Made by a program: the position numbers and the translations under genes
The notes under the pieces: model-generated
Seen by the model: only the letters and a program-made list of their open reading frames with translations
What the model was told of the DNA's origin: nothing
Database searches by the model: none
From: Rikenellaceae bacterium
Lineage (GTDB): Bacteria > Bacteroidota > Bacteroidia > Bacteroidales > Rikenellaceae
Assembly (NCBI GenBank): GCA_047171945.1
Contig: JBCQWR010000003.1
Location: forward strand, 10,170-74,169
Direction: 5' to 3'
DNA: 64,000 nucleotides
Part shown: positions 25,777-54,561 of the stretch, piece after piece
Position numbering within the stretch: position 1 is the first letter of the stretch
Layout of the letters: each line of letters begins with the position of its first letter

Positions 25777-25871
25777 GTTGGTCTGCTGATTTTATTGGTT
25801 TTAAAAAAAGGTTATATATGCGAAGATACGATTTATTTTTTGATATATCAAATTGTGGCTTCTTCTTGGCA

Positions 25872-26118
25872 GGCAAACGCACTAAAAATAGAGCTTTATA
25901 CTACTCTCTTACTGCCCTTGCAGTGAACTGCCGCCAAGCTTAGCTTGGATCCAAAAACTTACATTTTTGATCTTTATTGCACTGAGTGTGTGGGGCTTTG
26001 CCCTACGATATATCTCTTACTAATGATCTTTTGAAAGTCTCCTTTCAACGCTCATTAGTAAGAGATATATCTATGTCAACCTTACGGTTGCCACCACACA
26101 TCAGTGAGGTGAACCTCG
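25872..26118 (+). mobile_element. MITE-like hairpin-rich repeat, copy 1 (right end missing)
   Basis: Starts ggcaaacgcac; ~250 bp nearly identical to 52250-52496 and to the reverse complement of 54275-54521. Confidence 0.8.
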
Positions 26119-26136
26119 CTTTATATGAACCTATTT

Positions 26137-26165
26137 CGTCATTCCCGATCAAGTCGGGAATGACG
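26137..26165. repeat. REP-like palindrome abutting MITE copy 1
   Basis: cgtcattcccgatcaagtcgggaatgacg. Confidence 0.85.
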
Positions 26166-26330
26166 CACATGGAAAAGTCGGGAACAAAAAAACACAACAA
26201 AAGATACTCTCTTTGGTGCTATTCAAAACATTTTAGCGCCACGCCTTCTATTTTGTTGGGGAGTTTAACACCACTTTAACAAATATTAATTATCTTTGAG
26301 AAATTAATATAAAGGTTTGGATAGATAGAC

Positions 26331-27110
26331 ATGTCAACAAGCAATGAACCAAAAAGATACAAGAGTATAGTTATCTCCGATGTTCACTTAGGATCGAAGT
26401 GGTCGGCAGCCAAAGAGGCTACACGATTCATCAAGGAGAATAGTTGCGAGCAGCTTATACTTTGTGGCGATATAATAGATGGATGGGCAATTATGCGAGG
26501 CAGCCAAGAGAGGTGGAAACGCAGACATACTGCCTTCATTAAAGCTGTGCTCGACATATCGCTCAACACCGATGTGATATATATCAAAGGAAATCATGAT
26601 GATTTCTTAGATCGGATCGTGCCCATAAAATTTGCAAACATCACCATTGTAACAGATTATATACTCAAGAGTGGCAATCGCAGCTACTTTGTGCTCCATG
26701 GCGACATTTTTGATAATGTCACCACGTCGGCTAAGTGGCTCTCTAAATTGGGCGACATTGGATACTCGATGTTGCTGATGTTGAATAGATTTTTCAACTT
26801 TGTGCGCACCAAAAGCGGCAAGCCCTATGTCTCGTTTGCTTCGAGAATCAAGCAGCGTGTAAAGAGTTCGGTCTCTAAACTTAGCAACTTTGAGGAGAAC
26901 CTCGCCGAATTGGCTCGAGCAAAGAGGTGTCAAGGGGTGATATGTGGACATATCCACCGCCCCGAAATCAAGGATATTGGAGGTGTCGAGTATCTCAACT
27001 CGGGCGATTGGATTGAATCACTCTCGGCCTTGGTCGAAGATTTCGATGGCAACTGGTCTCTACAATATGTTCAACCTAAAGAGTCAAAAAAGGAGGATAA
27101 AGAGTCATGA
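26331..27110 (+). CDS. Calcineurin-like metallophosphoesterase (UDP-2,3-diacylglucosamine diphosphatase-like)
   Basis: SDVHLG, GDIID, KGNHD, HGD, CGHIH, NSGDW. Confidence 0.85.
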   Translation: MSTSNEPKRYKSIVISDVHLGSKWSAAKEATRFIKENSCEQLILCGDIIDGWAIMRGSQERWKRRHTAFIKAVLDISLNTDVIYIKGNHDDFLDRIVPIKFANITIVTDYILKSGNRSYFVLHGDIFDNVTTSAKWLSKLGDIGYSMLLMLNRFFNFVRTKSGKPYVSFASRIKQRVKSSVSKLSNFEENLAELARAKRCQGVICGHIHRPEIKDIGGVEYLNSGDWIESLSALVEDFDGNWSLQYVQPKESKKEDKES

Positions 27111-28198
27111 AATACCTATTTGTAATCCAAGGAGAGGGTCGTGGCCACATGACTCAATCTATAACTTTGGCAGGAATACTGCGTCGCAACGGCCACCAAG
27201 TGGTAGAGGTGCTGGTTGGCAAGTGCTCCAACCGTGAACTGCCTCAATTTTTCATCGACAAGATCGAGGCACCCATCACACGCTACTCCTCGCCAGCTCT
27301 CGACTATGGAAATGGGGGCAAGCATGGGCGCATGTGGCGTAGCATCATCAATAACTCACAACCAACACACAATGTAAGGTGGCTCAAAAGCATGAACCTG
27401 ATCGCCTCACGCATCCGTGCCACCAAGCCCGATGTGGTGGTCAACTTCTATGAGCTATTGATGGGCGTTACAACAATCTTCCACCGTATAAAGACTCCTG
27501 TTGTGAGCATAGCCCACCAATTTATGTTGGAACACCCTCAATATCAGCATAGAGCCGAGAACTCGCAGGCGCAGTGGATGATGTCGACGATGAATAACTT
27601 CTGTTCGCATGGCTCCAAGAAGATCTTGGCGCTCTCGCTCTACGACCTACCTCGACGACGGGTGCGCACATTCCGCAAGAATGTGGTGGTGGTACCACCC
27701 CTACTTCGTCCCGAGATCTTTGAATTGGAACCCACCTCGGGCGACTACATTTTGGGATATATACTAAACCCAGCATTCCTCGGCGAGATTCTCGAGTGGA
27801 AACGCTCACACCCCGAGATCAAAATTCACCTATTTTGGGATAAGGCAGGCGAGCCCGAGGAGCAGGAGGTGGTCGAGGGGTTGTGGCTACATCGCATCAA
27901 CGACCGCAAATTTATTGAGTATATGGCAGGCTCAGCAGGATATATAACCACAGCAGGATTTGAGTCGGTCTGCGAGGCATTCTACCTGGGTAAGGCGGTG
28001 ATGATGATCCCTGCGCACATCGAGCAACATATAAATGCTCGTGATGCCGCTGCCGCAGGTGTGGGTATCACATCAAAATATTTTGATTTGGCTCGATTGG
28101 CCAACTACATACCCAAACACAACAGCAATAATGAAGAGTTTCACGCTTGGGTGAGCTCTGCTGAGAAGATATTTATAGAGGAACTTACTAAAATATAA
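27107..28198 (+). CDS. GT-B glycosyltransferase (MJ1255/GT28-like)
   Basis: QGEGRGHMTQ N-terminal motif; TTAGFESVCEAFYLGK, EQHINA. Confidence 0.8.
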   Translation: MKYLFVIQGEGRGHMTQSITLAGILRRNGHQVVEVLVGKCSNRELPQFFIDKIEAPITRYSSPALDYGNGGKHGRMWRSIINNSQPTHNVRWLKSMNLIASRIRATKPDVVVNFYELLMGVTTIFHRIKTPVVSIAHQFMLEHPQYQHRAENSQAQWMMSTMNNFCSHGSKKILALSLYDLPRRRVRTFRKNVVVVPPLLRPEIFELEPTSGDYILGYILNPAFLGEILEWKRSHPEIKIHLFWDKAGEPEEQEVVEGLWLHRINDRKFIEYMAGSAGYITTAGFESVCEAFYLGKAVMMIPAHIEQHINARDAAAAGVGITSKYFDLARLANYIPKHNSNNEEFHAWVSSAEKIFIEELTKI

Positions 28199-28204
28199 GT
28201 CGCT

Positions 28205-30247
28205 ATGGGATCAATCTACAATCGAGAGATAAGCTGGCTGGAGTTCAACGAGCGAGTATTACAAGAGGCTCAAGATGAGAGTGTACCTCTCTTGCAGCGT
28301 CTACGATTTTTGGGAATATTCTCCAACAACCAAGATGAGTTCATCAAGGTGAGGATAGGTAATTTGATGCGCTACAGCGCCATGCGTCTTCGTGAGCAGC
28401 CCACAATGAGTGGCGGCTATCGCCCCGAGGAGCTGCTCTCGCTGCTCAACGAGAAGATGAGCACCTCGCAAGATAAATTCCGAAAGACATACCGCAAAAT
28501 AATTGAGGAGGCCGAGGGTGAGGGGATCTACGTAATCAACCAAGATCAACTCTCCGAGGAGCAGGCCGAGTTCTGTCGAGAGTACTTCTTCTCGGTACTC
28601 TCGTTGCGCTTGGGCCCTGTGATCATGCGCAAGAGCAGCAAGCTCCCATTTTTACCCGATGGCAAGATATATTTGGCCGTCAAGATGAGCAGCAAGCATA
28701 CCACACGCTATGCCGTAATCGAGATCCCCGTGAGCGACGCCTCACCTCGATTTGTGGTTCTACCATCGGTTGAGGGTCGTACCGACATCATCTTTGTGGA
28801 TGATATCATTCGCCTCTTTTTGGACGATATCTTCTTTATGTTTAGCTACGACACTATTTCGGCTCACACCTTCAAGGTGATCCGTGACGCCAAGTTGGCT
28901 CTCGACGACGATGTCTCGAAGAGCATCGCCGAGAAGATGTTTAAGGGTCTATCACGCCGTGAGCGAGGTCGTGTCGTGCGACTCATCTACGACAAGGAGA
29001 TGCCACTCGATCTGCGAGACACCATAATCCGCAAGTTTGGACTCAACTCATCGGCTCAAGTCGAGGCTGGTGGTCGCTACCACCTTATGCGAGACTTGAT
29101 GAAGTTCCCAAAGGTGCGCCCCACACTCGAGAGCCGCAGTCCACGACCCTTGATCCATCCCGATATAGATCCAAGCGATAGCATCCTCAAGGTAATCAAG
29201 CGCAAAGATATACTACTGAGCTATCCCTATCACACCTTCAACCACTTTATCGATCTGCTACGTGAGGCGGCAATCGACCCAATGGTTCACTCAATATATA
29301 TAACGTTATACCGCACAGCCTCACGCTCCAAAGTGATTAGTGCACTGCTCAACGCTGCGGCCAATGGCAAGCAGGTGACAGCCTTAGTGGAGCTCAAAGC
29401 TCGATTCGACGAGGAGCAGAATATCGACAATACCGATATCTTGCAGCGTGGTGGAGTGAAGGTGATCACAAGTCAGGAGATGCTCAAGGTACATAGTAAG
29501 TTGGTACTCATCGAGCGTCGTGAGGGCAACACTATGCGTGGATATGCCTACGTTGGCACAGGTAACTTTAATGAGAATACAAGTAGCATATATAGCGACT
29601 TCGGATTGTTGACGGCAAACGAGAATATCGCTGCCGATGCGCTCAAGGTATTTGACTTCTTGGAGAATACCCACAAACACCCTCTATGTAAATATCTTAT
29701 CGTCTCGCCATACTACATGCGTGACAAGATCGAAGAGATATTGAAGCGAGAGATAGATCAGGCCGAGAGTGGCAAGAAGGCATATTTCTACGGTAAATTC
29801 AACTCGCTCACCGATATCGAGATGATCAAGCTCCTCTACAAAGCTTCACGCAAAGGGGTGAAGATAAAGCTCTTGATACGTGGTGCCTGCTGCCTCGAGG
29901 CGGGGGTAAAGGGGCAAAGCGAAAATATCGAGGTGCGTAGCATCGTCGACAAATACCTCGAGCACGCACGTATGATAATCTGCCACAATGGAGGTAAGCC
30001 TCAAAGCTATATCCTCAGTGCCGATCTGATGACCCGCAACCTCAATCGACGGGTGGAGGTGGGAGTACCGATACTCTCCAAGGATATTCACGCCACCTTA
30101 GTCGACTACTTCAAAATAGAGTGGCACGATAATGTGAAATCCCGAGAGGTGGCTCCCCCCTACCTCAACGACTACATCTCAAACAAGAGGGAGCCCCTCA
30201 GAAGCCAAGATGAACTATACTCATTTTTTGAAAATATGAACCCATGA
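28205..30247 (+). CDS. ppk1: Polyphosphate kinase 1
   Basis: NREISWLEFNERVLQEA, YPYH, ELKARFDE, LKVHSK, GTGNFNE, VDKYLEHAR, SADLMTRNL. Confidence 0.96.
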   Translation: MGSIYNREISWLEFNERVLQEAQDESVPLLQRLRFLGIFSNNQDEFIKVRIGNLMRYSAMRLREQPTMSGGYRPEELLSLLNEKMSTSQDKFRKTYRKIIEEAEGEGIYVINQDQLSEEQAEFCREYFFSVLSLRLGPVIMRKSSKLPFLPDGKIYLAVKMSSKHTTRYAVIEIPVSDASPRFVVLPSVEGRTDIIFVDDIIRLFLDDIFFMFSYDTISAHTFKVIRDAKLALDDDVSKSIAEKMFKGLSRRERGRVVRLIYDKEMPLDLRDTIIRKFGLNSSAQVEAGGRYHLMRDLMKFPKVRPTLESRSPRPLIHPDIDPSDSILKVIKRKDILLSYPYHTFNHFIDLLREAAIDPMVHSIYITLYRTASRSKVISALLNAAANGKQVTALVELKARFDEEQNIDNTDILQRGGVKVITSQEMLKVHSKLVLIERREGNTMRGYAYVGTGNFNENTSSIYSDFGLLTANENIAADALKVFDFLENTHKHPLCKYLIVSPYYMRDKIEEILKREIDQAESGKKAYFYGKFNSLTDIEMIKLLYKASRKGVKIKLLIRGACCLEAGVKGQSENIEVRSIVDKYLEHARMIICHNGGKPQSYILSADLMTRNLNRRVEVGVPILSKDIHATLVDYFKIEWHDNVKSREVAPPYLNDYISNKREPLRSQDELYSFFENMNP

Positions 30248-31134
30248 AAGAGACTTTAGCTGCAATTGATATAGGATCCAACGCCATAAGGTTGGTTATA
30301 AATTATGTCGACAATAGCGATAAGGTTGCCTTCAAAAAGGCAGCCTTCTTGCGTGTTCCCATCCGTTTGGGTGAGGATGTTTTTACGAAGGGGGAGATTG
30401 GTGCCAACAAGCGCCAACGTCTTTGCGAGGCGATGGAGGCCTTTAGCCACGTGATGCGCACCTACAAAGTCTCTAAATTTAGAGCCTGTGCCACCAGCGC
30501 TATGCGAGAAGCCTCCAACGGTGCCGAGGTAGTAGATTACATCGCCAAGGTGAGCGGAATCTCGATCGAGATAATCTCGGGGCAGGAGGAGGCCAAGACG
30601 ATATTCGAGGCTGGCGACGTGGCTGGACTTATGGATCGTCGTGAGAGCTATCTCTATGTCGATGTGGGTGGCGGCAGCACCGAGGTGACTATCTATAGCA
30701 ACAACAAACGTGCTACCTCCGAATCTTTTAGATTGGGTACGGTACGTACGATCAGCGATGCGGTCGACAAAAATGAGCACAAACGATTCAAAAGATGGTT
30801 GGAGGAGGTGGCATTACCCTACCACCCAGTAGCGATTATCGGTTCGGGTGGCAACATCAACAAGGTGCACAAACTCCTCTCAAAGAAGGATAGAGAGTCT
30901 ATCCGCTACATCGAACTCAAGCTGCTCTACAACCAGATCAACGAGATGAGCTACGAGGAGCGATTGCGCAATATGGGGCTCAACACCTACCGTGCCGATG
31001 TAATCACCCCAGCGATGAAGATATTCTTGACGGTGGCCAAGGCGTGCAAGATCGATGAGATTGTGGTACCCAAGGTGGGTCTTGCCGATGGTATCATCCA
31101 CCACCTATACATCAAGGAGCTTGCAAAAAAATAG
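30244..31134 (+). CDS. ppx: Exopolyphosphatase (Ppx/GppA family)
   Basis: IDIGSNAIR, ATSAMREA, ISGQEEA, DVGGGSTE, RADVI. Confidence 0.93.
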   Translation: MKETLAAIDIGSNAIRLVINYVDNSDKVAFKKAAFLRVPIRLGEDVFTKGEIGANKRQRLCEAMEAFSHVMRTYKVSKFRACATSAMREASNGAEVVDYIAKVSGISIEIISGQEEAKTIFEAGDVAGLMDRRESYLYVDVGGGSTEVTIYSNNKRATSESFRLGTVRTISDAVDKNEHKRFKRWLEEVALPYHPVAIIGSGGNINKVHKLLSKKDRESIRYIELKLLYNQINEMSYEERLRNMGLNTYRADVITPAMKIFLTVAKACKIDEIVVPKVGLADGIIHHLYIKELAKK

Positions 31135-31145
31135 AAGATAAAACC

Positions 31146-31982
31146 ATGAAACAGATACTCCTACTACTCACAGTACTCTCGATGGCCACCCTCTCGATGG
31201 CACAAACAACTGTCATGAGCTACAACATACGCCTCAACACCAATAGCGATGGTCAATATCGCTGGGACGAGCGCAAAGATCGAATGATCACAAAGCTGGA
31301 GATAGATGGGGCCGACATCATCGGATTCCAGGAGGCGCTCTCATCGCAAGTGCGCTACTTGAGCTCTCACCTCAAAGATTACGACTGGGTTGGAGTGGGT
31401 CGAGACAATGGCAAACGAGGCGGAGAGTACACCCCCATCTTCTACAAAAAGGATCGCTTCATCCTCTCTTCGTGGGGTACCTACTGGCTCTCCGAAACCC
31501 CTTCGGTGCCCTCATTGGGGTGGGATGCTGCGTGTCACAGAACCGCCACATGGGCTCTATTGGAGAGTCGCACCGATGGTCAGCCACTCCTATTTATCAA
31601 CACCCACTTCGACCATGTGGGGGTGGAGGCACGTGTAAACAGCTCCAAAGCTATTGCCGAACTTGCCGACTCTCTCTGTGAGGAGTTTGGCGTGAGTCGA
31701 GTTCTCTTGGTGGGTGACTTCAACGTTCCTGTTTACAATAGCTCACTGAGCCCAATTCTCGAGTCGTTTGACTATGCGCTACTCTCGAGCAGCTCATATT
31801 GGGTGGCAGCGGCCGAGCCATCATACATTGGATTTCCTCACCACAATACCAAAGCAATGGCAATCGACCACATATTTACTCGAGGCCTCAAGGCTCAAAC
31901 ATATGTAGTCGATAGCCACAACTATGGTTTAGGATCTCTCTCCGACCACCTCTCGGTGAAATCTACCGTGGTGGAGAGGTAG
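31146..31982 (+). CDS. Secreted endonuclease/exonuclease/phosphatase-family protein
   Basis: Signal peptide; MSYNIR, GFQE, NTHFDH, GDFN, IDHIF, SDH. Confidence 0.9.
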   Translation: MKQILLLLTVLSMATLSMAQTTVMSYNIRLNTNSDGQYRWDERKDRMITKLEIDGADIIGFQEALSSQVRYLSSHLKDYDWVGVGRDNGKRGGEYTPIFYKKDRFILSSWGTYWLSETPSVPSLGWDAACHRTATWALLESRTDGQPLLFINTHFDHVGVEARVNSSKAIAELADSLCEEFGVSRVLLVGDFNVPVYNSSLSPILESFDYALLSSSSYWVAAAEPSYIGFPHHNTKAMAIDHIFTRGLKAQTYVVDSHNYGLGSLSDHLSVKSTVVER

Positions 31983-32469
31983 ACCTACCACCGTCGTGAG
32001 CCGAAATTCGAAGTACTGTGCGGCACTCCCGAAGAGCCTCTTCCAAGATATAATTCTCTTCCAATGAGGGTTCTCTTTGGTACAAGATCACGGCAGAGGA
32101 GCGAACGATAACATACTCTTCTATAGATGAGGGAATCCCTCTCACGCACTCATAAGCGGCATAAAGTATGTCGTCTGCCTTGTTGCATATGTAGCTATTC
32201 TGCTCGACAAGAGATTGAGCAAATAGCTCATTGCGATAATACTCAAATACCACCACTAATTTAATTTGTGGATTATTCATCTTTAGTCGCACAACCAACT
32301 CAGCAACTGTACGCCCCACACTCTGTTCGATGGGACATATAAATGTATCAAACCCCTCAGCTAACATATAGGTTAGCGCTTTTCGAACTCTCTCTCGAAG
32401 TGATAATGGGGTTGGTCGCTTCACCTTCGAGGATAATACTGTTGCTGTTTTGCTCTTGTCTTGGGTCAT
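31963..32469 (-). CDS. Divergent SLOG/DUF1273(YspA)-like protein
   Basis: RKALTYMLAEGFDTFIC..VAELVVRLK..P.IKLVVV..KADDI pattern; start moved to ATG 32469 (MTQDK). Confidence 0.5.
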   Translation of the reverse strand: MTQDKSKTATVLSSKVKRPTPLSLRERVRKALTYMLAEGFDTFICPIEQSVGRTVAELVVRLKMNNPQIKLVVVFEYYRNELFAQSLVEQNSYICNKADDILYAAYECVRGIPSSIEEYVIVRSSAVILYQREPSLEENYILEEALRECRTVLRISAHDGGRSTSPPR

Positions 32470-32745
32470 CAGATACTCTTTTTTTGGGTAATAAACACTT
32501 CGAGTAGCGACAAATATGGCATGAAACTCGAATGTTTCACACTCAGGTACGACCAAGCACCCACGACGCAAACAGACGAGTCCATGCCATAGGTGTATAC
32601 AGCAAAGACTTCGTCTATCTATTCTGCGTCAATTTTTTGGTCGTTTTGAGTGTGCGAATAAATAGCTAAATCTTATTTTATCTTATTTCTATATCTCTCT
32701 TATTTTTATTAAAACTATGTTATTATCTCTATACCATTCAATATG

Positions 32746-33906
32746 TTATCTATACGACTCGGCATAGATTGCCACACACTCCTCTTGAGTAAGGTCGCAG
32801 CGATCTGCCATAAAGAGTCCACCCATCGTGGAGCGTGCATTGCGTGCAAGAGTCTCAAATTCGGCTGGCTCAACGCCCCACTCCGAGAGTGCAATTTGAT
32901 CTACGCCACACGCCCTTTGGAGCTCCTCGAGTGCCTCGATAAAGTCAGTAGGTTTATCGCACTTCTCGCCTCGCATAGCCGAAGCCATCGCCACAAGGCG
33001 CTCGGGGCAGACCTCAATAAAGCGCTTGAAGTAGGCAACCGAAAGGGCGATAAGACCCGCACCGTGAGGCAACTCAGGGTGATAGGCGCTTAGTGCGTGC
33101 TCCAACGAGTGCTCCGAGGTGCAGCTCGAGGTCGACTCCACCATCCCTGCCAAGGTGTTGGCCAAGGCTACATCGGCACGAGCCTCAACATTGGAGCCAT
33201 CGGCCACAGCCGTAGGCAACGACTTGAATATCAGCTCAATGCTCTTGAGCGAGTAGAGCTCACTGATGGGAGTTGCGCACGAGGCGATATACCCCTCGGC
33301 AGAGTGGAAGAAGGCATCGAAGCCTTGGTATGCGGTGAGCTTCGATGGCACCGAGAGCATCATCTCGGGATCGACAATACTTATCACGGGGAAGGTTGCC
33401 TCGATTCCATATCCCACCTTCTCGCAGTTGTGGGTGATCACCGTCCATGGGTCAATCTCGGTACCTGTACCAGCCGTGGTGGTGATCGCTACCACAGGCA
33501 GAGCGCCACCTATTGGAGCCTTACCTAAGCCTGAGCCACCGCCCACATAGTCCCAATAGTCGCCCTCGTTGCATGCCATTATGGCGATTGATTTAGCCGA
33601 GTCGATTGACGAGCCGCCGCCCAATCCAACGATAAAGTCGCAACCCTCTCGGCGACAGAGAGCCGAGGCCTCCATCACATGGTCCTTGATGGGGTTGGGC
33701 AGAATCTTATCAAATAGAACCGTCTCGACACCACGCCCATTGAGCAGCGAGGTCACCTTGTCGAGGTATCCAAACCTACGCATTGAGGTGCCTGCCGAGA
33801 TTACGATTAGAGCTTTGCGGCCAGGGAGCTCCACTCGGCCGAGTTGATTGACCTCACCCGAGCCAAAGTAGAGGCGAGTGGGTATAAATTGTTTAAATGG
33901 TCTCAT
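32746..33906 (-). CDS. Iron-containing alcohol dehydrogenase
   Basis: GLGGGSSIDSAK, TTAGTGTE, GFDAFFHSAE, HSLEHALSA, PHGAG. Confidence 0.93.
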   Translation of the reverse strand: MRPFKQFIPTRLYFGSGEVNQLGRVELPGRKALIVISAGTSMRRFGYLDKVTSLLNGRGVETVLFDKILPNPIKDHVMEASALCRREGCDFIVGLGGGSSIDSAKSIAIMACNEGDYWDYVGGGSGLGKAPIGGALPVVAITTTAGTGTEIDPWTVITHNCEKVGYGIEATFPVISIVDPEMMLSVPSKLTAYQGFDAFFHSAEGYIASCATPISELYSLKSIELIFKSLPTAVADGSNVEARADVALANTLAGMVESTSSCTSEHSLEHALSAYHPELPHGAGLIALSVAYFKRFIEVCPERLVAMASAMRGEKCDKPTDFIEALEELQRACGVDQIALSEWGVEPAEFETLARNARSTMGGLFMADRCDLTQEECVAIYAESYR

Positions 33907-33921
33907 TTTTATCTATTGTGT

Positions 33922-36327: not shown

Positions 36328-36421
36328 ATCGCAACTTTTTTATAACTTTGCATTGGTAAAATATGATTAACTCATTATTCACGCTTGAAAAGTAGTGAAA
36401 AAATAGACAATAACCAAAGTT

Positions 36422-37450: not shown

Positions 37451-37505
37451 GAGGCCTCACCCAATAAGTTGGGATGAGACTACGTTGTAACTAAAAAAAA
37501 ATAGA

Positions 37506-39269: not shown

Positions 39270-39283
39270 AGAATAGAAGATTA

Positions 39284-40408: not shown

Positions 40409-40416
40409 TTAATGAT

Positions 40417-40848
40417 ATGATAAGATACAATTTTGATAGCTGTAGCTATCGCTTTACAGAGCGTCGTAAGATCAGCAGATGGCTCAAGGAATCAGCTAAG
40501 GCAGAGGGATTTGACTTAGGTGAGATCAACGTAATATTCTGCTCCGCCGAGCGACTACTCCAGATCAATCGTGAGTTCCTCCAACATGACTACTTCACCG
40601 ATATCATCACATTCGACTACAGCGATTTGGTGGATGCCAAGATGATCTCGGGGGAGCTCTTCATCGACATCGAGACTGTGGCCGACAACGCCTCGCTCTA
40701 TGGTGCCACACCCCTCGAGGAGATGCACCGAGTATTGGTACACGGGGTGATGCACCTCTGCGGCCAGGGTGACAAAAGCGAGGAGGATGCCGCTGCGATG
40801 CGCTCCAAGGAGAATCTCTACCTATCACGACTCCACCAAATGGAGTAA
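40417..40848 (+). CDS. ybeY: rRNA maturation RNase YbeY
   Basis: INREFLQHDYFTDIITF, GELFI, HRVLVHGVMHLCG; start set at ATG 40417. Confidence 0.93.
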   Translation: MIRYNFDSCSYRFTERRKISRWLKESAKAEGFDLGEINVIFCSAERLLQINREFLQHDYFTDIITFDYSDLVDAKMISGELFIDIETVADNASLYGATPLEEMHRVLVHGVMHLCGQGDKSEEDAAAMRSKENLYLSRLHQME

Positions 40849-40879
40849 AAAAGAACCAAACCAAACCAAATAAAAAATT

Positions 40880-42325: not shown

Positions 42326-42390
42326 TGTCTGCTGCATCCACTCTCTTTTTCTTAAGAGGTGTTACAACACGGTGCGGCAGTAGCAGAGCT

Positions 42391-43530: not shown

Positions 43531-43547
43531 CTAAATAAAAGCTGTTA

Positions 43548-45002: not shown

Positions 45003-45124
45003 AACTTTATATTTTAATCTATTTGTGGCAAAGATACGATAATTAATTGAAAAAAAAGTTGGTGATTCTTAGATATAATCATCAAAAAATATATACCTTT
45101 ACATAGATAAAGCGTTATAAGAAT

Positions 45125-46795: not shown

Positions 46796-46821
46796 TACAA
46801 CTAAAAATAAAAACAGAATTT

Positions 46822-49644
46822 ATGTTTGACAAATTTTCGTCACGACACATTGGTGTCAATCGTAGCGAAGAGATCGAGCAGATGCTCTCGGCAATTGGAG
46901 TAGAGTCTCTCGAGAGGTTAATTAGCGAGGTTATACCCTCCAACATCCGACTCAAGCACCCCTTGGCGCTCGATGCTGAAGGGATGAGCGAGTACCAATT
47001 TGCAGCCCACATTGGCGCATTGGCCCAAAGCAACCAGCAGTATCGCTCATTTATCGGCATGGGTTACTACCCCTCGGCAGTGCCAGCTGTAGTTAGCCGC
47101 AACGTCTTGGAGAATCCTACATGGTACACCTCCTACACCCCCTACCAAGCTGAGATCTCGCAGGGTAGATTGGAGGCTCTTTTGAACTTTCAAACCGCAA
47201 TCATCTCGCTCACGGGGCTCGAGATAGCCTCCTGTTCGCTTCTCGACGAGGCTACCGCTGCTGCCGAGGCGATGTTGATGCTCTTCGCTCTTCGCTCTCG
47301 TGCCGCTGTCAAGGAGGGTCACAACCTCCTCTTTGTCGATGAGAATATATTTCCTCAAACCCTCGATCTACTGCTCACTCGTAGCGAGCCTTATGGAATC
47401 GAACTTATCATCGACTCCTTCGAGAGTTACGAATTCTCGGGCAAGGAGTTTGGTGCAATTGTGCAATATCCTGCCGCCAATGGTGCAGTGCACAACTACG
47501 CCGCCTTCACCGAGCGTGCCCATGCAGCAGGGGCATTGGTCACAGCTGTGGCCGACCCTCTCTCTCTTGCGCTACTCAAGGCGCCAGGCGAGTGGGGTGC
47601 CGACGTTGCTGTTGGTTCAACTCAGCGCTTGGGTCTCCCAATGGGCTTTGGTGGCCCCTCGGCAGGCTATATGGCTACTCGTGAGGCCTACAAACGCAAC
47701 ATTCCAGGCCGCATAATTGGAGTCTCGGTCGACCGCTGCGGCAACAAGGCGCTCCGCATGGCACTCCAGATGCGTGAGCAGCATATCAAGCGTGAACGTG
47801 CAACATCCAACATATGTACCGCCTCGGCTCTTATGGCCTCGATGGTGGGCTTCTACTGCGTCTACAACGGCGCCGAGGGGTTGCGTCGTGCTGCCACCAC
47901 GGCCCACACTGCGGCACTCAGCGTAGCTGCGGCACTCAAGGCCTTGGGCTACAACCTAACCACAGAGTCTATCTTCGACACGATCGAGGTGGAGGCCGAG
48001 GTAGCTGTAGTGCAGTCGCTCGCCTTGGAGCGTGAGATAAATCTATTCTACCCTTCGGAGAGTCGTGTGCGCCTCTCGTTCGACGAGGTGACTACACCCG
48101 AGGAGATCGAAGAGGTGGTCGAGATATTTACCCTGGCGAAGGGTCGTAAGCCAAAAAAGGTGAAGATGGCAACAGAGGTGTCACTCGACGAGACTCTTCT
48201 ACGCACCTCGGAGTATCTCACCGAGGAGGTCTTCAACAGCTACCGCTCCGAGAGCGAGATGATGCGCTACATCAAGCGTCTCGAGCTGCGTGACATATCA
48301 CTTGCCAACTCTATGATTCCACTCGGCTCCTGCACGATGAAGCTCAATGCAGCCTCAATCATGCAGCCCATATCGCTCTCAGGATTCCAGAATATCCACC
48401 CATTTGCCCCCGAGGAGCAGGCGAGTGGCTACTTGGCGATGATCGGAGAGATGGAGCGTGATTTGGCAACCATCACTGGCTTTACAGCCTGCTCGCTCCA
48501 GCCCAATTCGGGTGCTGCGGGCGAGTATGCAGGGTTGATGGTTATTCGTGCCTACCACCAGAGTCGTGGCCAAGGCTACCGCAATATTGTGCTCATTCCC
48601 GACTCAGCGCATGGCACCAACCCAGCATCGGCGGCAATGGCAGGGATGAAGATCGTGGGGGTTAAGTGCGACGCTCAGGGCAACATCGATGTGGAGGATC
48701 TCAAAGCTAAGGCAGAGGCTAACTCTTCGGAGCTGAGTTGTTTGATGGTCACCTACCCATCGACCCATGGAGTATTCGAGAGCCGCATACGTGAGATCGT
48801 CGACGCTGTGCATGATGCTGGCGGACAGGTATATATGGATGGTGCCAATATGAATGCTCAGGTGGGACTCACCTCGCCAGGCTACATCGGTGCCGACGTA
48901 TGTCACCTCAATCTCCACAAGACCTTCGCCATGCCACACGGTGGTGGTGGCCCTGGTGTGGGTCCAATATGCTGCGCTGAGCACTTGGCTGAGTTCCTCC
49001 CATCGCACTCGGTGGTTCAAACGGGAGGCGAGAGTGGCATCACAGCCGTTTCGTCGTCGCCTTGGGGTTCGGCACTATTGTTGCCAATCACCTACGGCTA
49101 CATCAAGATGTTGGGCGAGGAGGGATTACGCCGCTCAACCGAGATGGCTATACTCAACGCCAACTACATATCGGCAGTGCTCAAAGATGATTTCAGAACA
49201 TATTATAGTGGCGAGAGTGGCTTTGTGGGTCACGAATTAATCCTCGACCTGACAAACTTCAAGCGTGACTACGGCTGCGACTGTGGCGATGTAGCTCGTC
49301 GCTTGATGGATTATGGATTCCACGCACCTACCCTCTCGTTCCCAGTTCACGAAACGTTGATGATAGAGCCCACCGAGAGTGAGAGCAAGGAGGAGATGGA
49401 TCGCTTCATCGAGGCCATCCGCTCGATCAAGGCCGAGTGTGAGGCGATTGGAGGCGAGGCGGACAACGTCGTGGTAAATGCTCCCCACACCTCATTTGAG
49501 ATCTGTGGCGAGTGGAGTCACCCCTACTCTCGTGAGGCGGCAGCATTCCCATTGGAGTGGGTGCGTCGCTCGAAGTTCTTCCCCTACGTCTCGAAGATCG
49601 ACGGAGGATATGGCGACAGGAACTTATGTTGTCGTTGTCAATAA
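46822..49644 (+). CDS. gcvP: Glycine dehydrogenase (decarboxylating), P protein
   Basis: YTPYQAEISQGRLEALLNFQ, REQHIKRERATSNICT, PLGSCTMKLN, HLNLHKTF, HGGGGPG. Confidence 0.97.
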   Translation: MFDKFSSRHIGVNRSEEIEQMLSAIGVESLERLISEVIPSNIRLKHPLALDAEGMSEYQFAAHIGALAQSNQQYRSFIGMGYYPSAVPAVVSRNVLENPTWYTSYTPYQAEISQGRLEALLNFQTAIISLTGLEIASCSLLDEATAAAEAMLMLFALRSRAAVKEGHNLLFVDENIFPQTLDLLLTRSEPYGIELIIDSFESYEFSGKEFGAIVQYPAANGAVHNYAAFTERAHAAGALVTAVADPLSLALLKAPGEWGADVAVGSTQRLGLPMGFGGPSAGYMATREAYKRNIPGRIIGVSVDRCGNKALRMALQMREQHIKRERATSNICTASALMASMVGFYCVYNGAEGLRRAATTAHTAALSVAAALKALGYNLTTESIFDTIEVEAEVAVVQSLALEREINLFYPSESRVRLSFDEVTTPEEIEEVVEIFTLAKGRKPKKVKMATEVSLDETLLRTSEYLTEEVFNSYRSESEMMRYIKRLELRDISLANSMIPLGSCTMKLNAASIMQPISLSGFQNIHPFAPEEQASGYLAMIGEMERDLATITGFTACSLQPNSGAAGEYAGLMVIRAYHQSRGQGYRNIVLIPDSAHGTNPASAAMAGMKIVGVKCDAQGNIDVEDLKAKAEANSSELSCLMVTYPSTHGVFESRIREIVDAVHDAGGQVYMDGANMNAQVGLTSPGYIGADVCHLNLHKTFAMPHGGGGPGVGPICCAEHLAEFLPSHSVVQTGGESGITAVSSSPWGSALLLPITYGYIKMLGEEGLRRSTEMAILNANYISAVLKDDFRTYYSGESGFVGHELILDLTNFKRDYGCDCGDVARRLMDYGFHAPTLSFPVHETLMIEPTESESKEEMDRFIEAIRSIKAECEAIGGEADNVVVNAPHTSFEICGEWSHPYSREAAAFPLEWVRRSKFFPYVSKIDGGYGDRNLCCRCQ

Positions 49645-49651
49645 ATTATCG

Positions 49652-49659
49652 TACCTTTG
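49652..49659 (+). promoter_or_regulatory. -7 box for slyD
   Basis: TACCTTTG 31 nt before the ATG. Confidence 0.6.
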
Positions 49660-49689
49660 CAAAAATTTTTCAAATAAAAAATAATAAAG

Positions 49690-50235
49690 ATGAAAGTAGA
49701 AATGAACAAGATGGTTGCTGTAAACTATACGCTAACCGTTGACGGAGCAGTAGCTGACCAATCAAAAGAGGGAGCACCATTGGAGTTTATCACAGGCTCA
49801 GGCATGATCCTTCCTAAGTTCGAGGAGGCTATCATGGAGAAGGAGGCTGGCGACAAGGTGGCCTTCACAATCGAGGCTGGCGAGGGCTATGGCGAGATCC
49901 ACCCAGAGGCTATCGTAGATCTTCCACGCTCGATCTTCTGTGACGAGAGCGGCCAAATTGCCGATATGGTAGTTGTTGGCAACGTATTGCCTATGTCTTC
50001 GGCTGATGGCCAACAGATGTACGGAATGGTTAAAGAGATCGGTGAGGAGACCGTTAAGATGGACTTCAACCACCCAATGGCTGGCAAGACTCTCAACTTC
50101 GAGGTTGAGGTAGTTTCAGTTCGTGACGTAACTCCAGAGGATTTGGCTCCAAAGGGCGGTTGCGGATGTGGCTGCGGCGAAGGTGGCGGATGTAGCGACG
50201 GCGATTGCGGTTGCGACGAGGGTTGCTGCAACTAA
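49690..50235 (+). CDS. slyD: FKBP-type peptidyl-prolyl isomerase SlyD with a Cys/Gly-rich tail
   Basis: PLEFITGSG, GYGE, MDFNHPMAGKTLNFEVEV. Confidence 0.9.
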   Translation: MKVEMNKMVAVNYTLTVDGAVADQSKEGAPLEFITGSGMILPKFEEAIMEKEAGDKVAFTIEAGEGYGEIHPEAIVDLPRSIFCDESGQIADMVVVGNVLPMSSADGQQMYGMVKEIGEETVKMDFNHPMAGKTLNFEVEVVSVRDVTPEDLAPKGGCGCGCGEGGGCSDGDCGCDEGCCN

Positions 50236-50260
50236 TAAGTAGTAGAGATTTTCCTATTAA

Positions 50261-50308
50261 TAGGACGACAAATTGTGCTTGAGCTCGATTTGTCGTCTTA
50301 TTTTTTTA
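50261..50308 (+). terminator. Terminator after slyD
   Basis: taggacgacaaatt/gatttgtcgtctta stem followed by a T run. Confidence 0.7.
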
Positions 50309-50539
50309 TTGAACTACATCATCCCCATAAATATAGCTCACAGACCTATTTCATAAGGATTTATTAAAAAAATTATACATCATTTCCCTTCAAACAAAAT
50401 GCACACCCCGATTTAATGTTGCAAAAAGTTGCATTAATAGATTTTTTAATATATATATGCGATGTCATTTGGTACAAAATAGATGGTAATCAGTTACAAA
50501 AAAGTATAAAACTTTTTATTAATTTAAACAAATAAACAG

Positions 50540-51064
50540 ATGAAAAAAATTTTTCTTTTAGCTGCCGCAGTACTATGTATGGCATCAGCTGCATCAGCTC
50601 AAACATTCTCTAAGGGTGATCAAAACATCTCTGCAACTGTCGGTCTTGGTGGTGGTTACGGCATTCCAATCGGTGTATCTTACGAGAAGGGTATGTGGGA
50701 TATAGGTAGCGACAACAACATGGCTATCGGTCTTGGTGGTTTCGTAGGTTTCTCTTCTTATGCCGAAGATTTTGGAACATACAAGTACACCTACTCAAAT
50801 ATCTACCTTGCAGCTGAGGGTAACTTCCACTTCACTGAGTTCAGCAAATGGGATCTTTATGCTGGTCTTCGCCTTGGTTACAACGTAGCAAGCGGAAGCT
50901 GGGATGACGACTCTGTATCTGACCTATATTCAGTTTCTACAGGTGGTCTTATCTACACTACTCACATTGGTGCCAACTACTTCCTTAACGACACTTGGGC
51001 TATCAACGCTGAGCTTGGTTACGGTATCGCATCTCTTTCTGCTGGTGTAACTTACAAATTCTAA
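50540..51064 (+). CDS. Small outer-membrane beta-barrel protein
   Basis: Signal peptide; alternating aromatic strands; ends GVTYKF. Confidence 0.85.
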   Translation: MKKIFLLAAAVLCMASAASAQTFSKGDQNISATVGLGGGYGIPIGVSYEKGMWDIGSDNNMAIGLGGFVGFSSYAEDFGTYKYTYSNIYLAAEGNFHFTEFSKWDLYAGLRLGYNVASGSWDDDSVSDLYSVSTGGLIYTTHIGANYFLNDTWAINAELGYGIASLSAGVTYKF

Positions 51065-51086
51065 GAGACTCCAACTTTAGAGTTAT

Positions 51087-51131
51087 AAAAAATGAGGATG
51101 GCTTTTTTTTGAAAGCCATCCTCATTTTTTT
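51087..51131. terminator. Bidirectional intrinsic terminator between convergent genes
   Basis: aaaaaatgaggatggcttt/aaagccatcctcatttttt perfect stem with A and T tails. Confidence 0.88.
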
Positions 51132-51140
51132 CGCTACGAC

Positions 51141-52211
51141 CTAATCGTCGAGACCTCCATCCCGTGCAAACTCATCTATAGAGCGCAGGAAGTGCGCTAT
51201 GGTCTGCTCCATCGTGCGATATGATTTTCCTCCTGCGGCATTCTTGTGTCCACCACCATCGAAATATTTACGAGCAAAAAGGTTAACATCAATATGAGGA
51301 CGTGAACGGAACGAGATACGTATAAATTTGCGGTGCTCGATAAATATCACCGAGAATTTCATCTTCTGTATTGATAACGGATAGTTCACAAAACCCTCAC
51401 TATCGCCCTGCTGGAAGTTGAAACGGCGCATCTCACGCTCAGTGAGAGCCATGTAGGCCACTGTGCCACCCTTAATTATCGACATCTTGCGAGCGATGGT
51501 ATAGCCAAAGAGACGAGCACGGTCTTCGCTAAAAGAGTTGTATACCTGCGAGTTAATCTTAGGAATATCGATCCCCTTCTCGACCAACACAGCCAAAGCT
51601 CGATAGAGAGCAGGGGTAAGAAACGAAAATGAGAAGTTCCCCGTATCGGTCATCATACCGACATAGAGAAGCTCACCGATACTCTTATCTATAAGCTCCA
51701 CTCCCCACATCAACTCAATTATGGAGTAGACCACAAAGCAGGTACTCGAGGCATCGGGGTGCGAGAAGAGGAGGTCGTAACCCTCCTCGGGCGAGAGGTG
51801 GTGGTCGATCAAAATTCGCTTAGCTCCACTATTAGCACCAATAACATCACCCAACCCCTCCAATCGAGAGAGAGCATTGAAGTCGAGACAGAAGATGATC
51901 TCGGCACTATTAACAATCTGCGAGACCCTCTCGGGGTTATCCTTATAGATTATCAACTCCTCGACGCCCTCCATCCATCCCAAGAAATATGGATATTTGT
52001 TAGGGACTATGCAACTCACTGAGTGTCCAAATTTGCGCAATACACGAGCCCACGAGAGCGACGAACCAATGGCATCACCATCAGGATTGGTGTGCGACAC
52101 AATTACAATCTCTCGCCCCTGAGGTGACGAAAGTAGCTCTTTGAGCATCGATATACTATTCTCTGATATAACCATCTTCCCTAAATTATCTAATTTTACA
52201 AAAATAGTCAA
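51141..52211 (-). CDS. DHH-family phosphoesterase (NrnA-like)
   Basis: SHTNPDGDAIGS, LDFN, IDHH, TDTG, SFRS, GGGHKNAAG. Confidence 0.92.
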   Translation of the reverse strand: MTIFVKLDNLGKMVISENSISMLKELLSSPQGREIVIVSHTNPDGDAIGSSLSWARVLRKFGHSVSCIVPNKYPYFLGWMEGVEELIIYKDNPERVSQIVNSAEIIFCLDFNALSRLEGLGDVIGANSGAKRILIDHHLSPEEGYDLLFSHPDASSTCFVVYSIIELMWGVELIDKSIGELLYVGMMTDTGNFSFSFLTPALYRALAVLVEKGIDIPKINSQVYNSFSEDRARLFGYTIARKMSIIKGGTVAYMALTEREMRRFNFQQGDSEGFVNYPLSIQKMKFSVIFIEHRKFIRISFRSRPHIDVNLFARKYFDGGGHKNAAGGKSYRTMEQTIAHFLRSIDEFARDGGLDD

Positions 52212-52249
52212 TTATTTTTAGATATCAAAATAGTACTGGGGCGTTGTCA

Positions 52250-52603
52250 GGCAAACGCACGAAAGATAGAGTTCTACACTACTCTCTTACTGCCCTAACA
52301 GCGGGCGGCTGCCAAGCTTAGCTTGGATCCAAAAACTTGCGTTTTTGATCTTTATTGCACTGAGTGTGTGGGGCTTTGCCCTATGATATATCTCTTATAA
52401 TGATCTTTTGAAAGTCTCCTTTCAACGCTCATTATAAGAGATATATCTATGTCAACCTTACGGTTGCCACCACACATCAGTGAGGTGAACCTCGAGAAGG
52501 GTTGAAGTCTCTAAGCCCTTATCGCAAGATAGTATACACCAGCGGAGGTGTTTTTTTTCGCCCGACGGAGTCAGTAGTAAACTCTAATTTTTCGAGCGCT
52601 TGT
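52250..52603 (+). mobile_element. MITE-like repeat, copy 2 (both ends present, right end degenerate)
   Basis: Left ggcaaacgcacgaaagatagag, right aactctaatttttcgagcgcttg; internal hairpins; homologous to copies 1 and 3. Confidence 0.82.
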
Positions 52604-52630
52604 GTATTAAGATTTTATTATGTACATTTG
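52599..52630 (+). promoter_or_regulatory. Putative hybrid promoter for the hemerythrin-LuxR pair
   Basis: CTTG (within the MITE right end)-N20-TACATTTG. Confidence 0.55.
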
Positions 52631-52712
52631 TATCAAATTCAACCTCTTGACCATCACCATTTCGGCCAAGAGGGGCAAATTGCAACACCTTCAAAAGATT
52701 TAATTTTAGAGT

Positions 52713-53414
52713 ATGATTATGTATAAAGTAGGGGTCTACCACTCTGGCGACTCGATGAGCGATCTTATCTGCGACAACTACCCAATGCTTCTGGTGATGA
52801 GCCGATTTGGCATTGACTTAGGCGTTGGTGACCAAACTATTGGCGAGGCATGCCTCAAAAGTGGAGTCGATATTGATACTTTTTTGGCTGTGGTCAATGT
52901 ATTGGTGGCGGGTGTCGAAAGAGGCGCTACACCTAATATAGATTACCAAAAGGTATCTCTCTCGTCACTAACCGAATACCTCCACAACTCACACTCCTAC
53001 TTCCTCGAGTATCGCCTACCAGCAATTAGGCAAGAGCTTGTCGAGGCGTTGAACAATAGCGGCGACGTTGCAGTGGTGATATTGAACTACTACGACGAAT
53101 ACGTAGCCGAGGTAAACAACCATATGAGCTACGAGGAGCAGACCCTATTCCCCTACATCAACTCAATGCTAAACGGATCAACCGACAACGAATACAGCAT
53201 TGACGATTATAGCCGTCACCACGACAAAATAGAGTCTAAGCTCTCGGAGTTGAAGGGAATATTAATCAAGTACTACCCCGCAAAGACAACCAATGCACTC
53301 AACACGGTACTCTACGACATCTTCTCATGCGAGCGTGATTTAGCGTCACATAACTCTATTGAGAACCACCTCCTGGTTCCCACAATGAGAATATTGGAGT
53401 CTCAAAAAAGATAA
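52713..53414 (+). CDS. Hemerythrin-domain protein (ScdA/RIC-like)
   Basis: ScdA-like N-terminus (SRFGIDLG..TIGEAC); H/E iron-ligand motifs HNSH, HMSYEE, HDKIE, HNSIE. Confidence 0.85.
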   Translation: MIMYKVGVYHSGDSMSDLICDNYPMLLVMSRFGIDLGVGDQTIGEACLKSGVDIDTFLAVVNVLVAGVERGATPNIDYQKVSLSSLTEYLHNSHSYFLEYRLPAIRQELVEALNNSGDVAVVILNYYDEYVAEVNNHMSYEEQTLFPYINSMLNGSTDNEYSIDDYSRHHDKIESKLSELKGILIKYYPAKTTNALNTVLYDIFSCERDLASHNSIENHLLVPTMRILESQKR

Positions 53415-53418
53415 GACA

Positions 53419-54039
53419 ATGGCCAAACCTCTACATATAGTTATAGCTGAACCATCTGCAATAATTCGCTATGGTTTGGTCTCGCTTCTTCAGCAATCGA
53501 CATCGTTGAGTGCCGACATAGTTGAGTTGAACGACATCACCACGCTTTCGACCACCACATTTAGGGTAACACCAGACCTACTTATAATCAACCCTCTACA
53601 CTTAGGGATATACCTCCCATCGCAACTCAAAGTCGAAATGGGTAACGAGAATCTCAAGATTGTAGCTCTACATAGCGTCTTGACCGATCCCAATACAATC
53701 AAGAGCTACGACGCCTCATTCTCGATCTACGATGGTGTGGGGTCAATAGTCGACACCCTACTCGAGGTGACCAGAGGTAACCAAGAGCAGGAGGGACGCA
53801 AGGAGCTCAGCCAGCGTGAAAAGGAGATTATAGTGTGCGTGGTGAAAGGCATGACAAACAAACAGATTGCCGACTCGCTCTGCCTCTCGACCCACACGGT
53901 GATAGCCCACCGCCGCAACATCGCTGGAAAGCTACAGATACATAGCCCCTCGGGACTCACCATCTATGCCATTGTCAACAAGTTGATAGACCTTGCAGAT
54001 GTCAAAAATAGCATCTCGCAGAGCCGTGACGAGGAGTAA
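53419..54039 (+). CDS. LuxR-family transcriptional regulator with an atypical receiver domain
   Basis: LSQREKEII..VVKGMTNKQIADSLCLSTHTVIAHRRNI HTH; receiver has N in place of the phospho-Asp (DLLIINP). Confidence 0.9.
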   Translation: MAKPLHIVIAEPSAIIRYGLVSLLQQSTSLSADIVELNDITTLSTTTFRVTPDLLIINPLHLGIYLPSQLKVEMGNENLKIVALHSVLTDPNTIKSYDASFSIYDGVGSIVDTLLEVTRGNQEQEGRKELSQREKEIIVCVVKGMTNKQIADSLCLSTHTVIAHRRNIAGKLQIHSPSGLTIYAIVNKLIDLADVKNSISQSRDEE

Positions 54040-54074
54040 ACTATAATTTTTATTGCGTTTGCCCAGGGCAAATA

Positions 54075-54521
54075 GGGCAAACGCACGAAAAATTATAGTT
54101 TATTACTGACTCCGTCGGGCGGAAAAAAACACCTCCGCTGGTGTATACTATCTTGCGATAAGGGCTTAGAGACTTCATCTCTAAGATTGTATAGGTTAGC
54201 GAGTTGTGCAAATTTATTTGCCTCAACTCGCTAACCTATACATTTTTTAAATGTCTAACGACATTTAAACCCTTCTCGAGGTTCACCTCACTGATGTGTG
54301 GTGGCAACCATAGGTTGACATAGATATATCTCTTATAATGAGCGTTGAAAGGAGACTTTCAAAAGATCATTATAAGAGATATATCGTAGGGCAAAGCCCC
54401 ACACGCTCAGTGCAATAAAGATCAAAAACGTAAGTTTTTGGATCCAAGCTAAGCTTGGCGGCCGCCCGCTGCAAGGGCTGTAAGAGAGTAGTGTAGAACT
54501 CTATTTTTATTGCGTTTGCCC
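54075..54521 (-). mobile_element. MITE-like repeat, copy 3 (longest, inverted, both terminal inverted repeats intact)
   Basis: Ends gggcaaacgcacgaaaaattatagtt and aactctatttttattgcgtttgccc; extra 91-bp hairpin block at 54178-54268 absent from copy 2. Confidence 0.85.
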
Positions 54522-54561
54522 AGGGCAAACGCAATGGGCAAACGCAATAGGCATTAATTCA

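Follow-up and report, generated by a model that had tools for sequence, protein, structure and literature searches.

Insertion sequences of the ISAs1 family, as tabulated in ISfinder, have CAGGG ends and generate target duplications of 8-10 bp. The pneumococcal BOX elements (organised as A-B(n)-C), the Correia elements of Neisseria and the enterobacterial repetitive intergenic consensus (ERIC) sequences are small, modular, intergenic repeats that are structured when transcribed, and they are often co-transcribed, affecting termination or mRNA stability. In proteobacteria, the bacterial interspersed mosaic elements (BIMEs) and the REPINs, built from repetitive extragenic palindromes (REPs), are moved by REP-associated tyrosine transposases (RAYTs). 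ISArsp11, of the ISAs1 family, has inverted repeats beginning CAGGGCTGATGC... and a 10-bp duplication (PMC6305408, Table 3), and the BrickBuilt element of Porphyromonas gingivalis combines IS5-type ends (GAGACCTTTGCA) with a 23-nt tandem minisatellite (PMC4596501). Here we describe a family of hairpin-rich repeats found in 64,000 nt of chromosomal DNA of an uncultured fish-gut Rikenellaceae species (contig JBCQWR010000003.1, positions 10,170 to 74,169; the whole of this stretch is hereafter termed the window), which is probably a non-autonomous, non-coding, trans-mobilised mosaic family of MITEs (miniature transposable elements with inverted repeats).

Profile searches with nhmmer identified three long copies and one 55-nt fragment as clear homologues, with E-values of 4e-125 (52245-52609), 2.5e-124 (54070-54524), 3.9e-89 (25867-26120) and 5.6e-13 (21808-21865), in agreement with the three copies and ~50-bp sub-module proposed in an earlier, sequence-only reading of the window. 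The profile built from these copies found no further match anywhere in the 64 kb. Full copies are 350-450 bp in length, and those of the whole family range from 230 to 450 bp. Copies 2 and 3 lie in opposite orientations and match each other over 209 nt at 95% complementarity plus stretches of 105 and 53 nt; the additional block previously noticed in copy 3 (block H) is exactly 91 nt long, and copy 1 adjoins, at its end, a second, REP-like repeat family at 26119-26192. The motif GGGCAAACGCA, allowing at most one mismatch, occurs seven times against 0.9 expected, a count reached in none of 100 shuffles, and the REP-like motif GTAGGGCAAAGCCCCAC is present in the element as had been reported. The supposed lack of coding capacity was also borne out, in that the open reading frames (ORFs) of the copies are no longer than 74 aa, differ between copies with none conserved, and are absent from a collection of 15 billion proteins; a homology search with the longest frame shared by the copies returned no match. 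All copies are intergenic, and their neighbours are housekeeping genes, including recG, an lpxH-like gene, ppk, proS, pheS, murD, ftsW, nrdJ and dnaB. The window proteins and locus recur in the contigs JBCQWO010000001.1, JBCQWN, JBCQWQ, JBCQWP and JAWXTE of metagenome-assembled genomes (MAGs), and the window sequence was found in fish-gut metagenome runs.

Contigs from four DNA metagenomes of the source study were placed on the loci to obtain sequencing depth and element borders. The left module of copy 1 was present at 45-92x the depth of its single-copy flanks (3898-4430 versus 71-78 in run X1), the middle of the element at ~17-40x, the right module at ~24x (copies 2 and 3 summed) and block H at ~5x. 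For a single genome these ratios are maximum values, since related species with the family occur in the same samples. The copies interrupt assemblies of the same species, with contigs ending either in copy 3 or ~188 nt upstream of the lpxH-like gene. A fourth and more diverged copy, ending in ...TGCGTTTGCCCTG, was located 9.5 kb past the end of the window (L017:1-471, where L017 denotes the host contig beyond it), and four copies lie within the ~85 kb of host genome covered.

The borders of the element are sharp. Where the last flank letters of metagenome contigs join the element, the consensus at both ends is CAGGGCAAACGCA, with matching ends at positions 25872, 52250 and 54074; beyond these, the sequence is A/T-rich and variable from contig to contig (agreement 0.46-0.63), and the C shared beside the flanks belongs to the CAGGG at both ends. 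The imperfect terminal inverted repeats described earlier were recovered in copy 3 over 19 nt at 89% complementarity without gaps, or over ~33 nt when one indel is allowed, and comparable repeats were found in two of the related Rikenellaceae loci that were compared (L001, L002 from MAG386, L009-L016, and L033 from JAWXTG), namely in L013 (19 nt at 89%) and L002 (20 nt plus 15 nt). Directly at the two ends of the L002 copy stand TAGATTTTTT and TAGATTTATT, a 10-bp direct repeat matching at nine of ten positions; we estimate the chance of such a match at fixed positions in AT-rich DNA as ~5e-4. High copy number, sharp termini and varied flanks in the metagenome contigs thus uphold the MITE-like character suggested previously.

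The carriers of the family are a small clade of uncultured fish-gut Rikenellaceae, within which its distribution is patchy. When one genome for each GTDB species was scanned for exact patterns, the module C motif turned up in just two further MAGs of the Rikenellaceae. Exact-pattern scans of JGI metagenome contigs and of IMG/VR gave 0 matches, and blastn searches of PLSDB plasmids and GenBank phages gave none. The Rfam gathering-threshold scan of the window returned a tRNA-Gly only, a permissive scan of 52150-54650 produced chance-level matches to microRNA-like hairpins, and no description of MITEs of the Rikenellaceae was found in the literature searched. As the sequence-only reading had anticipated, no known family fits; the family itself is most likely new, its kind (a MITE) being already known.

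Full or partial copies were found in four relatives. L002 carries a full-length copy of ~350 nt (7000-7347), ~70% identical to the window copies and with the same fold, L001 contains two fragments, and L033 holds three copies in 15 kb. In L013 (nrdJ 89%) a 230-bp variant lies just downstream of nrdJ; its ends match those of the window family (CAGGGTAAACGCATG...CGCGCGTTTACCCTG and CAGGGTAAACGC...GCGTTTACCCTG), its interior consisting of two right modules and an H-type hairpin. The presence or absence of modules between copies and species confirms the modular build proposed for the element. No copy was present at the nrdJ loci L009-L012 (protein 86-91% identical) or L014-L016 (83%, same study), ~110 kb in total, L009 having a short relic with CGCCCGACGGAGTCAGT. 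A hairpin of the form GCACC..GGTGC followed by CGCCCGACGGAGTCAG, or near variants of this combination, was also observed alone in intergenic DNA (L009:7990-8030, L001:3880-3945 and L012:7780-7838), in several cases just downstream of nrdJ; no other piece of the family is conserved so widely.

The interior of the element is strongly folded relative to shuffled sequences, with z-scores of -8.9 on one strand of copy 2 and -8.6 on the other, the L002 copy giving -8.9. When six named helices were scored on five cores, drawn from three lineages, the proportion of paired cells was 96.8%, versus 33-40% with the partners slid by 1-3 columns, a control that flatters the structure because the structure was derived from those same sequences. 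The double changes are free of this bias: 10 of the 57 pairs had changed on both sides, no pair varied on one side only, and the covariation score was reached by 0 of 500 column shuffles, confirming the compensatory stem changes that had been suspected from the window copies. In the main stem, the window has GATATATCTCTTATAATGA, copy 4 has GATATATTTATTAAAATGA, L002 has GATAGATGCATTACAAAGA and the L033 core L033-A has GATATATAATAATAGCTGAGAG (23 of 23 pairs), with the apical TGAAA..TTTCAAC kept in all four. With L033 included, hairpin a changes from CCAAGC/GCTTGG to CCAGGC/GCCTGG, the small GC hairpin has been swapped for GCGCTT/AAGCGC, and the inner long-range stem has passed from TGTGTG/CACACA to TTTGC/GCAAA. 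The tip of block H (GAGTTG..GCAAAT..ATTTGC..CAACTC) is kept in L013 and L033, and its lower stems are wholly different, still paired, across three species.

The paired extra C/G reported in copy 1 was located at alignment columns 158/196, and both extra bases are missing (as deletions at 26020 and 26058) from nearly all other metagenome copies. Copying of one arm from the other at the DNA level accounts for such a mirrored insertion more readily than a pair of independent mutations would. A lower-energy fold was obtained on the bottom strand in six of seven cores, by up to 18 kcal/mol, and single-transition mismatches comprised ~10 A.C on the top strand (equivalent to G.U on the bottom strand) versus ~3 of the opposite kind, a modest bias of ~13 events (one-sided binomial p ~0.05 by our own estimate). 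What is unusual about this family is the strictness with which its hairpins are preserved through structure-preserving change across species, together with a hint of strand bias; the kind of element is itself ordinary. The features of the window copies and of their surroundings are collected in Table 1.

Table 1. Coordinates, strand and description of the repeat copies, their internal features and the enclosed genes in the window.
Feature	Position	Strand	Description
Isolated fragment	21809-21865	-	Module C and 3' arm of long-range stem
Copy 1	25870-26118	+	Left terminus (CAGGCAAACGCA...) and core; ends after module C/long-range stem; right part missing
Copy 1 main hairpin	26007-26071	+	Bears the paired extra C/G
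Copy 2	52248-52605	+	Full length
Copy 2 left terminus	52248-52282	+
Copy 2 hairpin a	52312-52326	+
Copy 2 hairpin b	52330-52347	+
Copy 2 long-range-stem domain	52358-52482	+	Encloses REP-like, main and module C hairpins
Copy 2 long-range stem arms	52358-52370, 52471-52482	+	5' arm CACTGAGTGTGTG pairs with CACACATCAGTG
Copy 2 REP-like hairpin	52369-52383	+
Copy 2 main hairpin	52385-52447	+	Lower stem 19 bp; conserved apical hairpin TTGAAAG/CTTTCAA
Copy 2 module C hairpin	52453-52466	+
Copy 2 terminator-like hairpin	52536-52558	+	ACACC/GGTGT then T8; in right module
Copy 2 conserved right motif	52559-52574	+	CGCCCGACGGAGTCAG
Copy 2 right terminus	52575-52605	+	Final 13 nt degenerate
Hemerythrin-domain gene	52719-53414	+	Context; bracketed by inverted copies 2 and 3
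GerE/LuxR-type regulator gene	53419-54039	+	Context; second gene of operon
Solo right-terminus fragment	54036-54066	+	GTAAACTATAATTTTTATTGCGTTTGCCCAG; 31 nt; starts at LuxR stop codon; faces copy 3 right terminus
Copy 3	54074-54523	-	Full length; both termini intact; inverted relative to copy 2
Copy 3 terminator-like hairpin	54123-54144	-	Mirror of the ACACC/GGTGT and T8 hairpin
Copy 3 block H	54178-54268	-	Optional; two hairpins
Copy 3 main hairpin	54323-54385		Counterpart of 52385-52447
Two tandem 13-nt terminus fragments	54523-54548	+	GGGCAAACGCAAT twice; head to head with copy 3 left terminus

Several properties of the family are together those of a MITE, namely a small size within the range of 50-1000 bp, the absence of an ORF, the inverted ends, the many copies with unrelated flanks, the AT-rich intergenic sites, the truncated and nested copies and the patchy distribution. 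Of the three mechanisms offered by the sequence-only reading, mobilisation by a DDE transposase is the best supported, given the CAGGGC ends and the one 10-bp repeat, a RAYT-type origin is weakly supported, and a structured RNA keeps some likelihood, as considered below. In the proposed mechanism, the two ends would be bound by a DDE transposase, most likely an ISAs1-family enzyme with its gene at another place in the genome, which would move or copy the element into AT-rich intergenic DNA, duplicating probably ~10 bp of the target, to judge from the single case in L002. Between the ends lies a chain of hairpins a and b, the long-range stem, the optional block H and the right module with CGCCCGACGGAGTCAG, the long-range stem itself enclosing the small GC hairpin, a main hairpin of 19-23 bp and the module C hairpin. 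The hairpins may have been kept because only copies that keep the fold are propagated, or because the arms of the palindromes correct each other at the DNA level, which the mirrored C/G of copy 1 fits well. Where neighbouring transcription reads through the element, it would fold in the RNA.

With ISAs1-type MITEs, which it most resembles in its ends, the family agrees in its length of 230-450 bp, its lack of an ORF, its imperfect inverted ends starting from CAGGGC, its AT-rich intergenic location, its tens of copies and the one 10-bp repeat, but differs in that no parent insertion sequence is known, the interior is made of hairpin modules and not of a deleted transposase gene, some subfamilies (L033) have other termini, and duplications are not seen at most copies. 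The mosaic interior resembles BIME or REPIN arrays more than it does a deleted insertion sequence.

A number of observations weigh against this DDE-mobilised MITE interpretation. The partner transposase was not found in the ~85 kb of host genome covered; among the genes of the window there is no transposase, mobile-type integrase or RAYT gene. The ends of the window copies are truncated, degenerate or compound, those of copies 2 and 3 being rearranged or degenerate, and the L013 copy shows no target duplication, so that only one of the two intact copies in relatives has one. The check on copy number and empty sites proposed earlier was answered in its first part, by the depth ratios given above; on the second, no contig from the source population skips a copy, and related species lacking the element show broken synteny at the corresponding sites, with no exact empty site. 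In L033, two of the copies are cores without recognisable CAGGG ends yet have perfect hairpins, and a third variant (L033:7936-8382) has inverted ends of 52 nt, 96% complementary, that are the right module itself (GGCCTGGGTCTGACTCCGTCGGGCGG...), its interior having, where the main hairpin would be, a different and perfect hairpin of 21 bp, as well as module C and an H-type hairpin. The modules therefore travel with more than one kind of terminus, and a single transposase acting on a single terminus does not explain the whole family. Furthermore, a simple selfish DDE element would need neither so strictly conserved a structure nor a surplus of mismatches that would be G.U on one strand.

The same structural conservation would be expected if the repeats were a multi-copy family of structured-RNA genes, transcribed from the bottom strand (relative to copy 2) and selected for their fold, an explanation that we regard as unlikely. 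Such an RNA could be a cis-acting element of untranslated regions that stabilises, terminates or insulates transcripts, its inverted ends forming a closing stem, or it could act in trans, for example as the partner RNA of a recombinase or nuclease. It would account for the fold z-scores of about -9 in two species, for the double-changed pairs and the pairing that is lost when partners are slid, for stems wholly replaced but perfect in L033 and L013, for L033 cores that retain the fold without their CAGGG ends, and for the preference of both fold energy and mismatches for the bottom strand, although this strand bias amounts to few events of borderline significance. The copies are also truncated, nested and mosaic, as is usual for mobile DNA, their orientation relative to neighbouring genes is uninformative, and neither an Rfam match nor a conserved promoter was seen. 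A sigma-70 promoter scan was set aside, that consensus being uninformative for Bacteroidota.

Transcription data bear on the same explanation. The element is present in four metatranscriptomes of the same samples and study, assembled as contigs that carry no strand or end information; its left module (copies 2 and 3 summed) has an element-to-flank ratio of ~89 in RNA and ~94 in DNA. As the two ratios are nearly the same, there is no sign of strong expression of its own, specific expression was rejected, and the presence of the element in RNA is most simply explained by read-through. Within copy 3, the ACACC/GGTGT hairpin with its T8 run faces the incoming nrdJ transcript and could end that transcript in the window species, the T run being absent from the copies of other species.

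A bolder combination, which we consider distinctly unlikely, holds that the ~190-nt core (hairpins a and b with the long-range-stem domain) functions as a structured RNA, or as single-stranded DNA, read from the bottom strand and spreading as a mobile gene. Its fold would be needed by a protein partner, such as a recombinase or nuclease using structured RNA or an HUH enzyme, and CAGGG-type ends would be one of several vehicles.

Movement as single-stranded DNA by a Y1 HUH transposase, of the RAYT or IS200/IS605 type, would make the family a BIME- or REPIN-like mosaic of REP-like hairpins, and we judge this very unlikely. An enzyme of this type recognises hairpin shape on one strand, in keeping with a strand-specific mismatch bias, and the modules have a conserved tip above a variable but paired lower stem, as in REPs. 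The sequence GTAGGGCAAAGCCC occurs in the window subfamily and in L002, and a clear GTAG-headed REP/REPIN family, carried by the same genome at ~17x the depth of its flanks, nests in copies 1 and 4. As with BIMEs and REPINs, the repeats are extragenic mosaics of short hairpin units with optional modules, covarying stems and conserved tips, in whose company a true GTAG-headed REPIN family occurs. The long inverted ends and the 10-bp flanking repeat, however, are features that HUH elements, BIMEs and REPINs all lack, and the 64 kb contain no RAYT or TnpA gene. The RAYT idea is further weakened because the GTAG-headed motif is not conserved, being GCAG in copy 4 and absent from L033. Membership among REPs or REPINs was accordingly rejected, GTAG being present in copies 1-3 and L002 but not in copy 4 or L033, and the inverted ends being long. 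Derivation from IS200/IS605 as a palindrome-associated transposable element (PATE) was rejected too: elements of that type have subterminal hairpins and a fixed 4-5-nt target on one side, with neither terminal inverted repeats nor a duplication, whereas the present family has inverted ends and, in L002, the 10-bp flanking repeat.

The least probable explanation is an old cis-acting intergenic element that is not mobile (an array for protein binding, an insulator or a terminator), kept by host selection after recombination had spread it. In its favour are the terminator-like hairpin with T8 in the window subfamily, the lack of insertion polymorphism seen within the species and the family modules just downstream of nrdJ in three species; these are opposed by dozens of copies whose flanks are unrelated and whose inverted termini are sharp, a T run that is missing in other species, an orientation downstream of nrdJ that varies by species, and the absence of the element from most relatives.

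In behaviour, the BOX, Correia and ERIC sequences come nearest to the family, but they have no sequence relationship to it and belong to hosts of another phylum; Correia elements duplicate TA, and BOX elements have no such terminus. BrickBuilt, together with MITE239, MITE464 and MITE700 (PMC4596501), resembles the present family in its Bacteroidales host, its lack of coding sequence, its internal repeats of modular build, its copy number of 10-20 or more and its inconsistent target duplications. Here, by contrast, CAGGGCAAACGCA forms the ends and hairpins take the place of tandem repeats as modules, and an identity with BrickBuilt was rejected on the basis of these ends and interior and of the fish-gut Rikenellaceae source.

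Copies 2 and 3 bracket an operon encoding a hemerythrin-domain protein and a GerE/LuxR-type regulator. Orthologues of the former, at 57-79% identity, are present in Rikenellaceae and Alistipes, and L033 encodes the same two-gene operon at another locus, where the LuxR protein ends in ...SQGREE* (...SQSRDEE* in the window). The conserved orthologues and this second locus with its like C-terminus indicate that the operon is native and not cargo. The possibility that the pair is carried within a composite transposon was weakened by the same conservation and by the absence of a duplication around the whole 52248-54523 unit. Either the copies were inserted beside the operon, or recombination between copies moved it. 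Joints on opposite strands, which might have suggested an inversion of the operon, are accounted for by third copies of mosaic build, in contigs too short to reach across 350-bp repeats.

Around these copies, element termini meet head to head with one base between them (TTGCGTTTGCCC-A/T-GGGCAAA...) at 54053-54072 and 54510-54548. The head-to-head termini and the tandem 13-nt unit could have been left by insertion into a terminus already in place, by abortive transposition or by a joined-ends junction. A segment of 43 nt comprising the degenerate right end of copy 2 and the 30 nt beyond it (52589-52631, + strand) is 84% identical to 4448-4490 (- strand), the region upstream of a DUF4954 gene, with a -7 box of the Bacteroidota type (TAnnTTTG) in each stretch. 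What looks like a decayed terminus at the right of copy 2 may instead be a junction with a promoter module.

The gene order downstream of nrdJ (window position 54562 onward) differs in every relative examined (L009-L016), and the upstream order (ftsW, murD) is kept in the closer relatives L009-L012 and is different in L014-L016. Since the DNA downstream of nrdJ differs each time, the element, modules of which lie just downstream of nrdJ in three species, marks a breakpoint of synteny. Elsewhere in the window, a low-GC gene (37%, with strong skew) at 59824-61782 (- strand) encodes a fused cytosine DNA methylase and HpaII-type restriction enzyme (PF00145 and PF09561), and sits between an Mg-chelatase-like gene and murD. 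This restriction-modification gene appears to have been inserted recently, because the Mg-chelatase-like gene and murD are adjacent in L009-L012.

The second repeat family consists of GTAG-headed palindromes (TGTAGATTCCCGATCAAGTCGGGAATGACG) arranged as REPIN-like inverted pairs at 16628-16711, 18869-18969, 26119-26192 and L017:215-335. Its stems covary (TTCCTGA/TCTGGAA, TCTCAGA/TCTGAGA and CCCCAGA/TCTGGGG), its depth is ~17x that of the flanks, and it occupies the same internal position where nested in copies 1 and 4. This family suggests that a RAYT-type system is present somewhere in the genome.

For Bacteroidota, little has been described in the way of MITEs and REP-like mosaics. In the host species, the abundance of the family breaks every assembly at the same places, which matters for MAG quality and binning. 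Inverted repeats of 350 bp around an operon of the redox- or nitric oxide-sensing type could invert or move that operon. With its many structure-preserving substitutions, among them the replacement of whole stems, the family also offers a good natural case for asking what maintains hairpins in bacterial repeats, whether selection acting on RNA or on single-stranded DNA, or palindrome correction at the DNA level, and, were the structured-RNA explanation true, it would represent a new class of mobile RNA.

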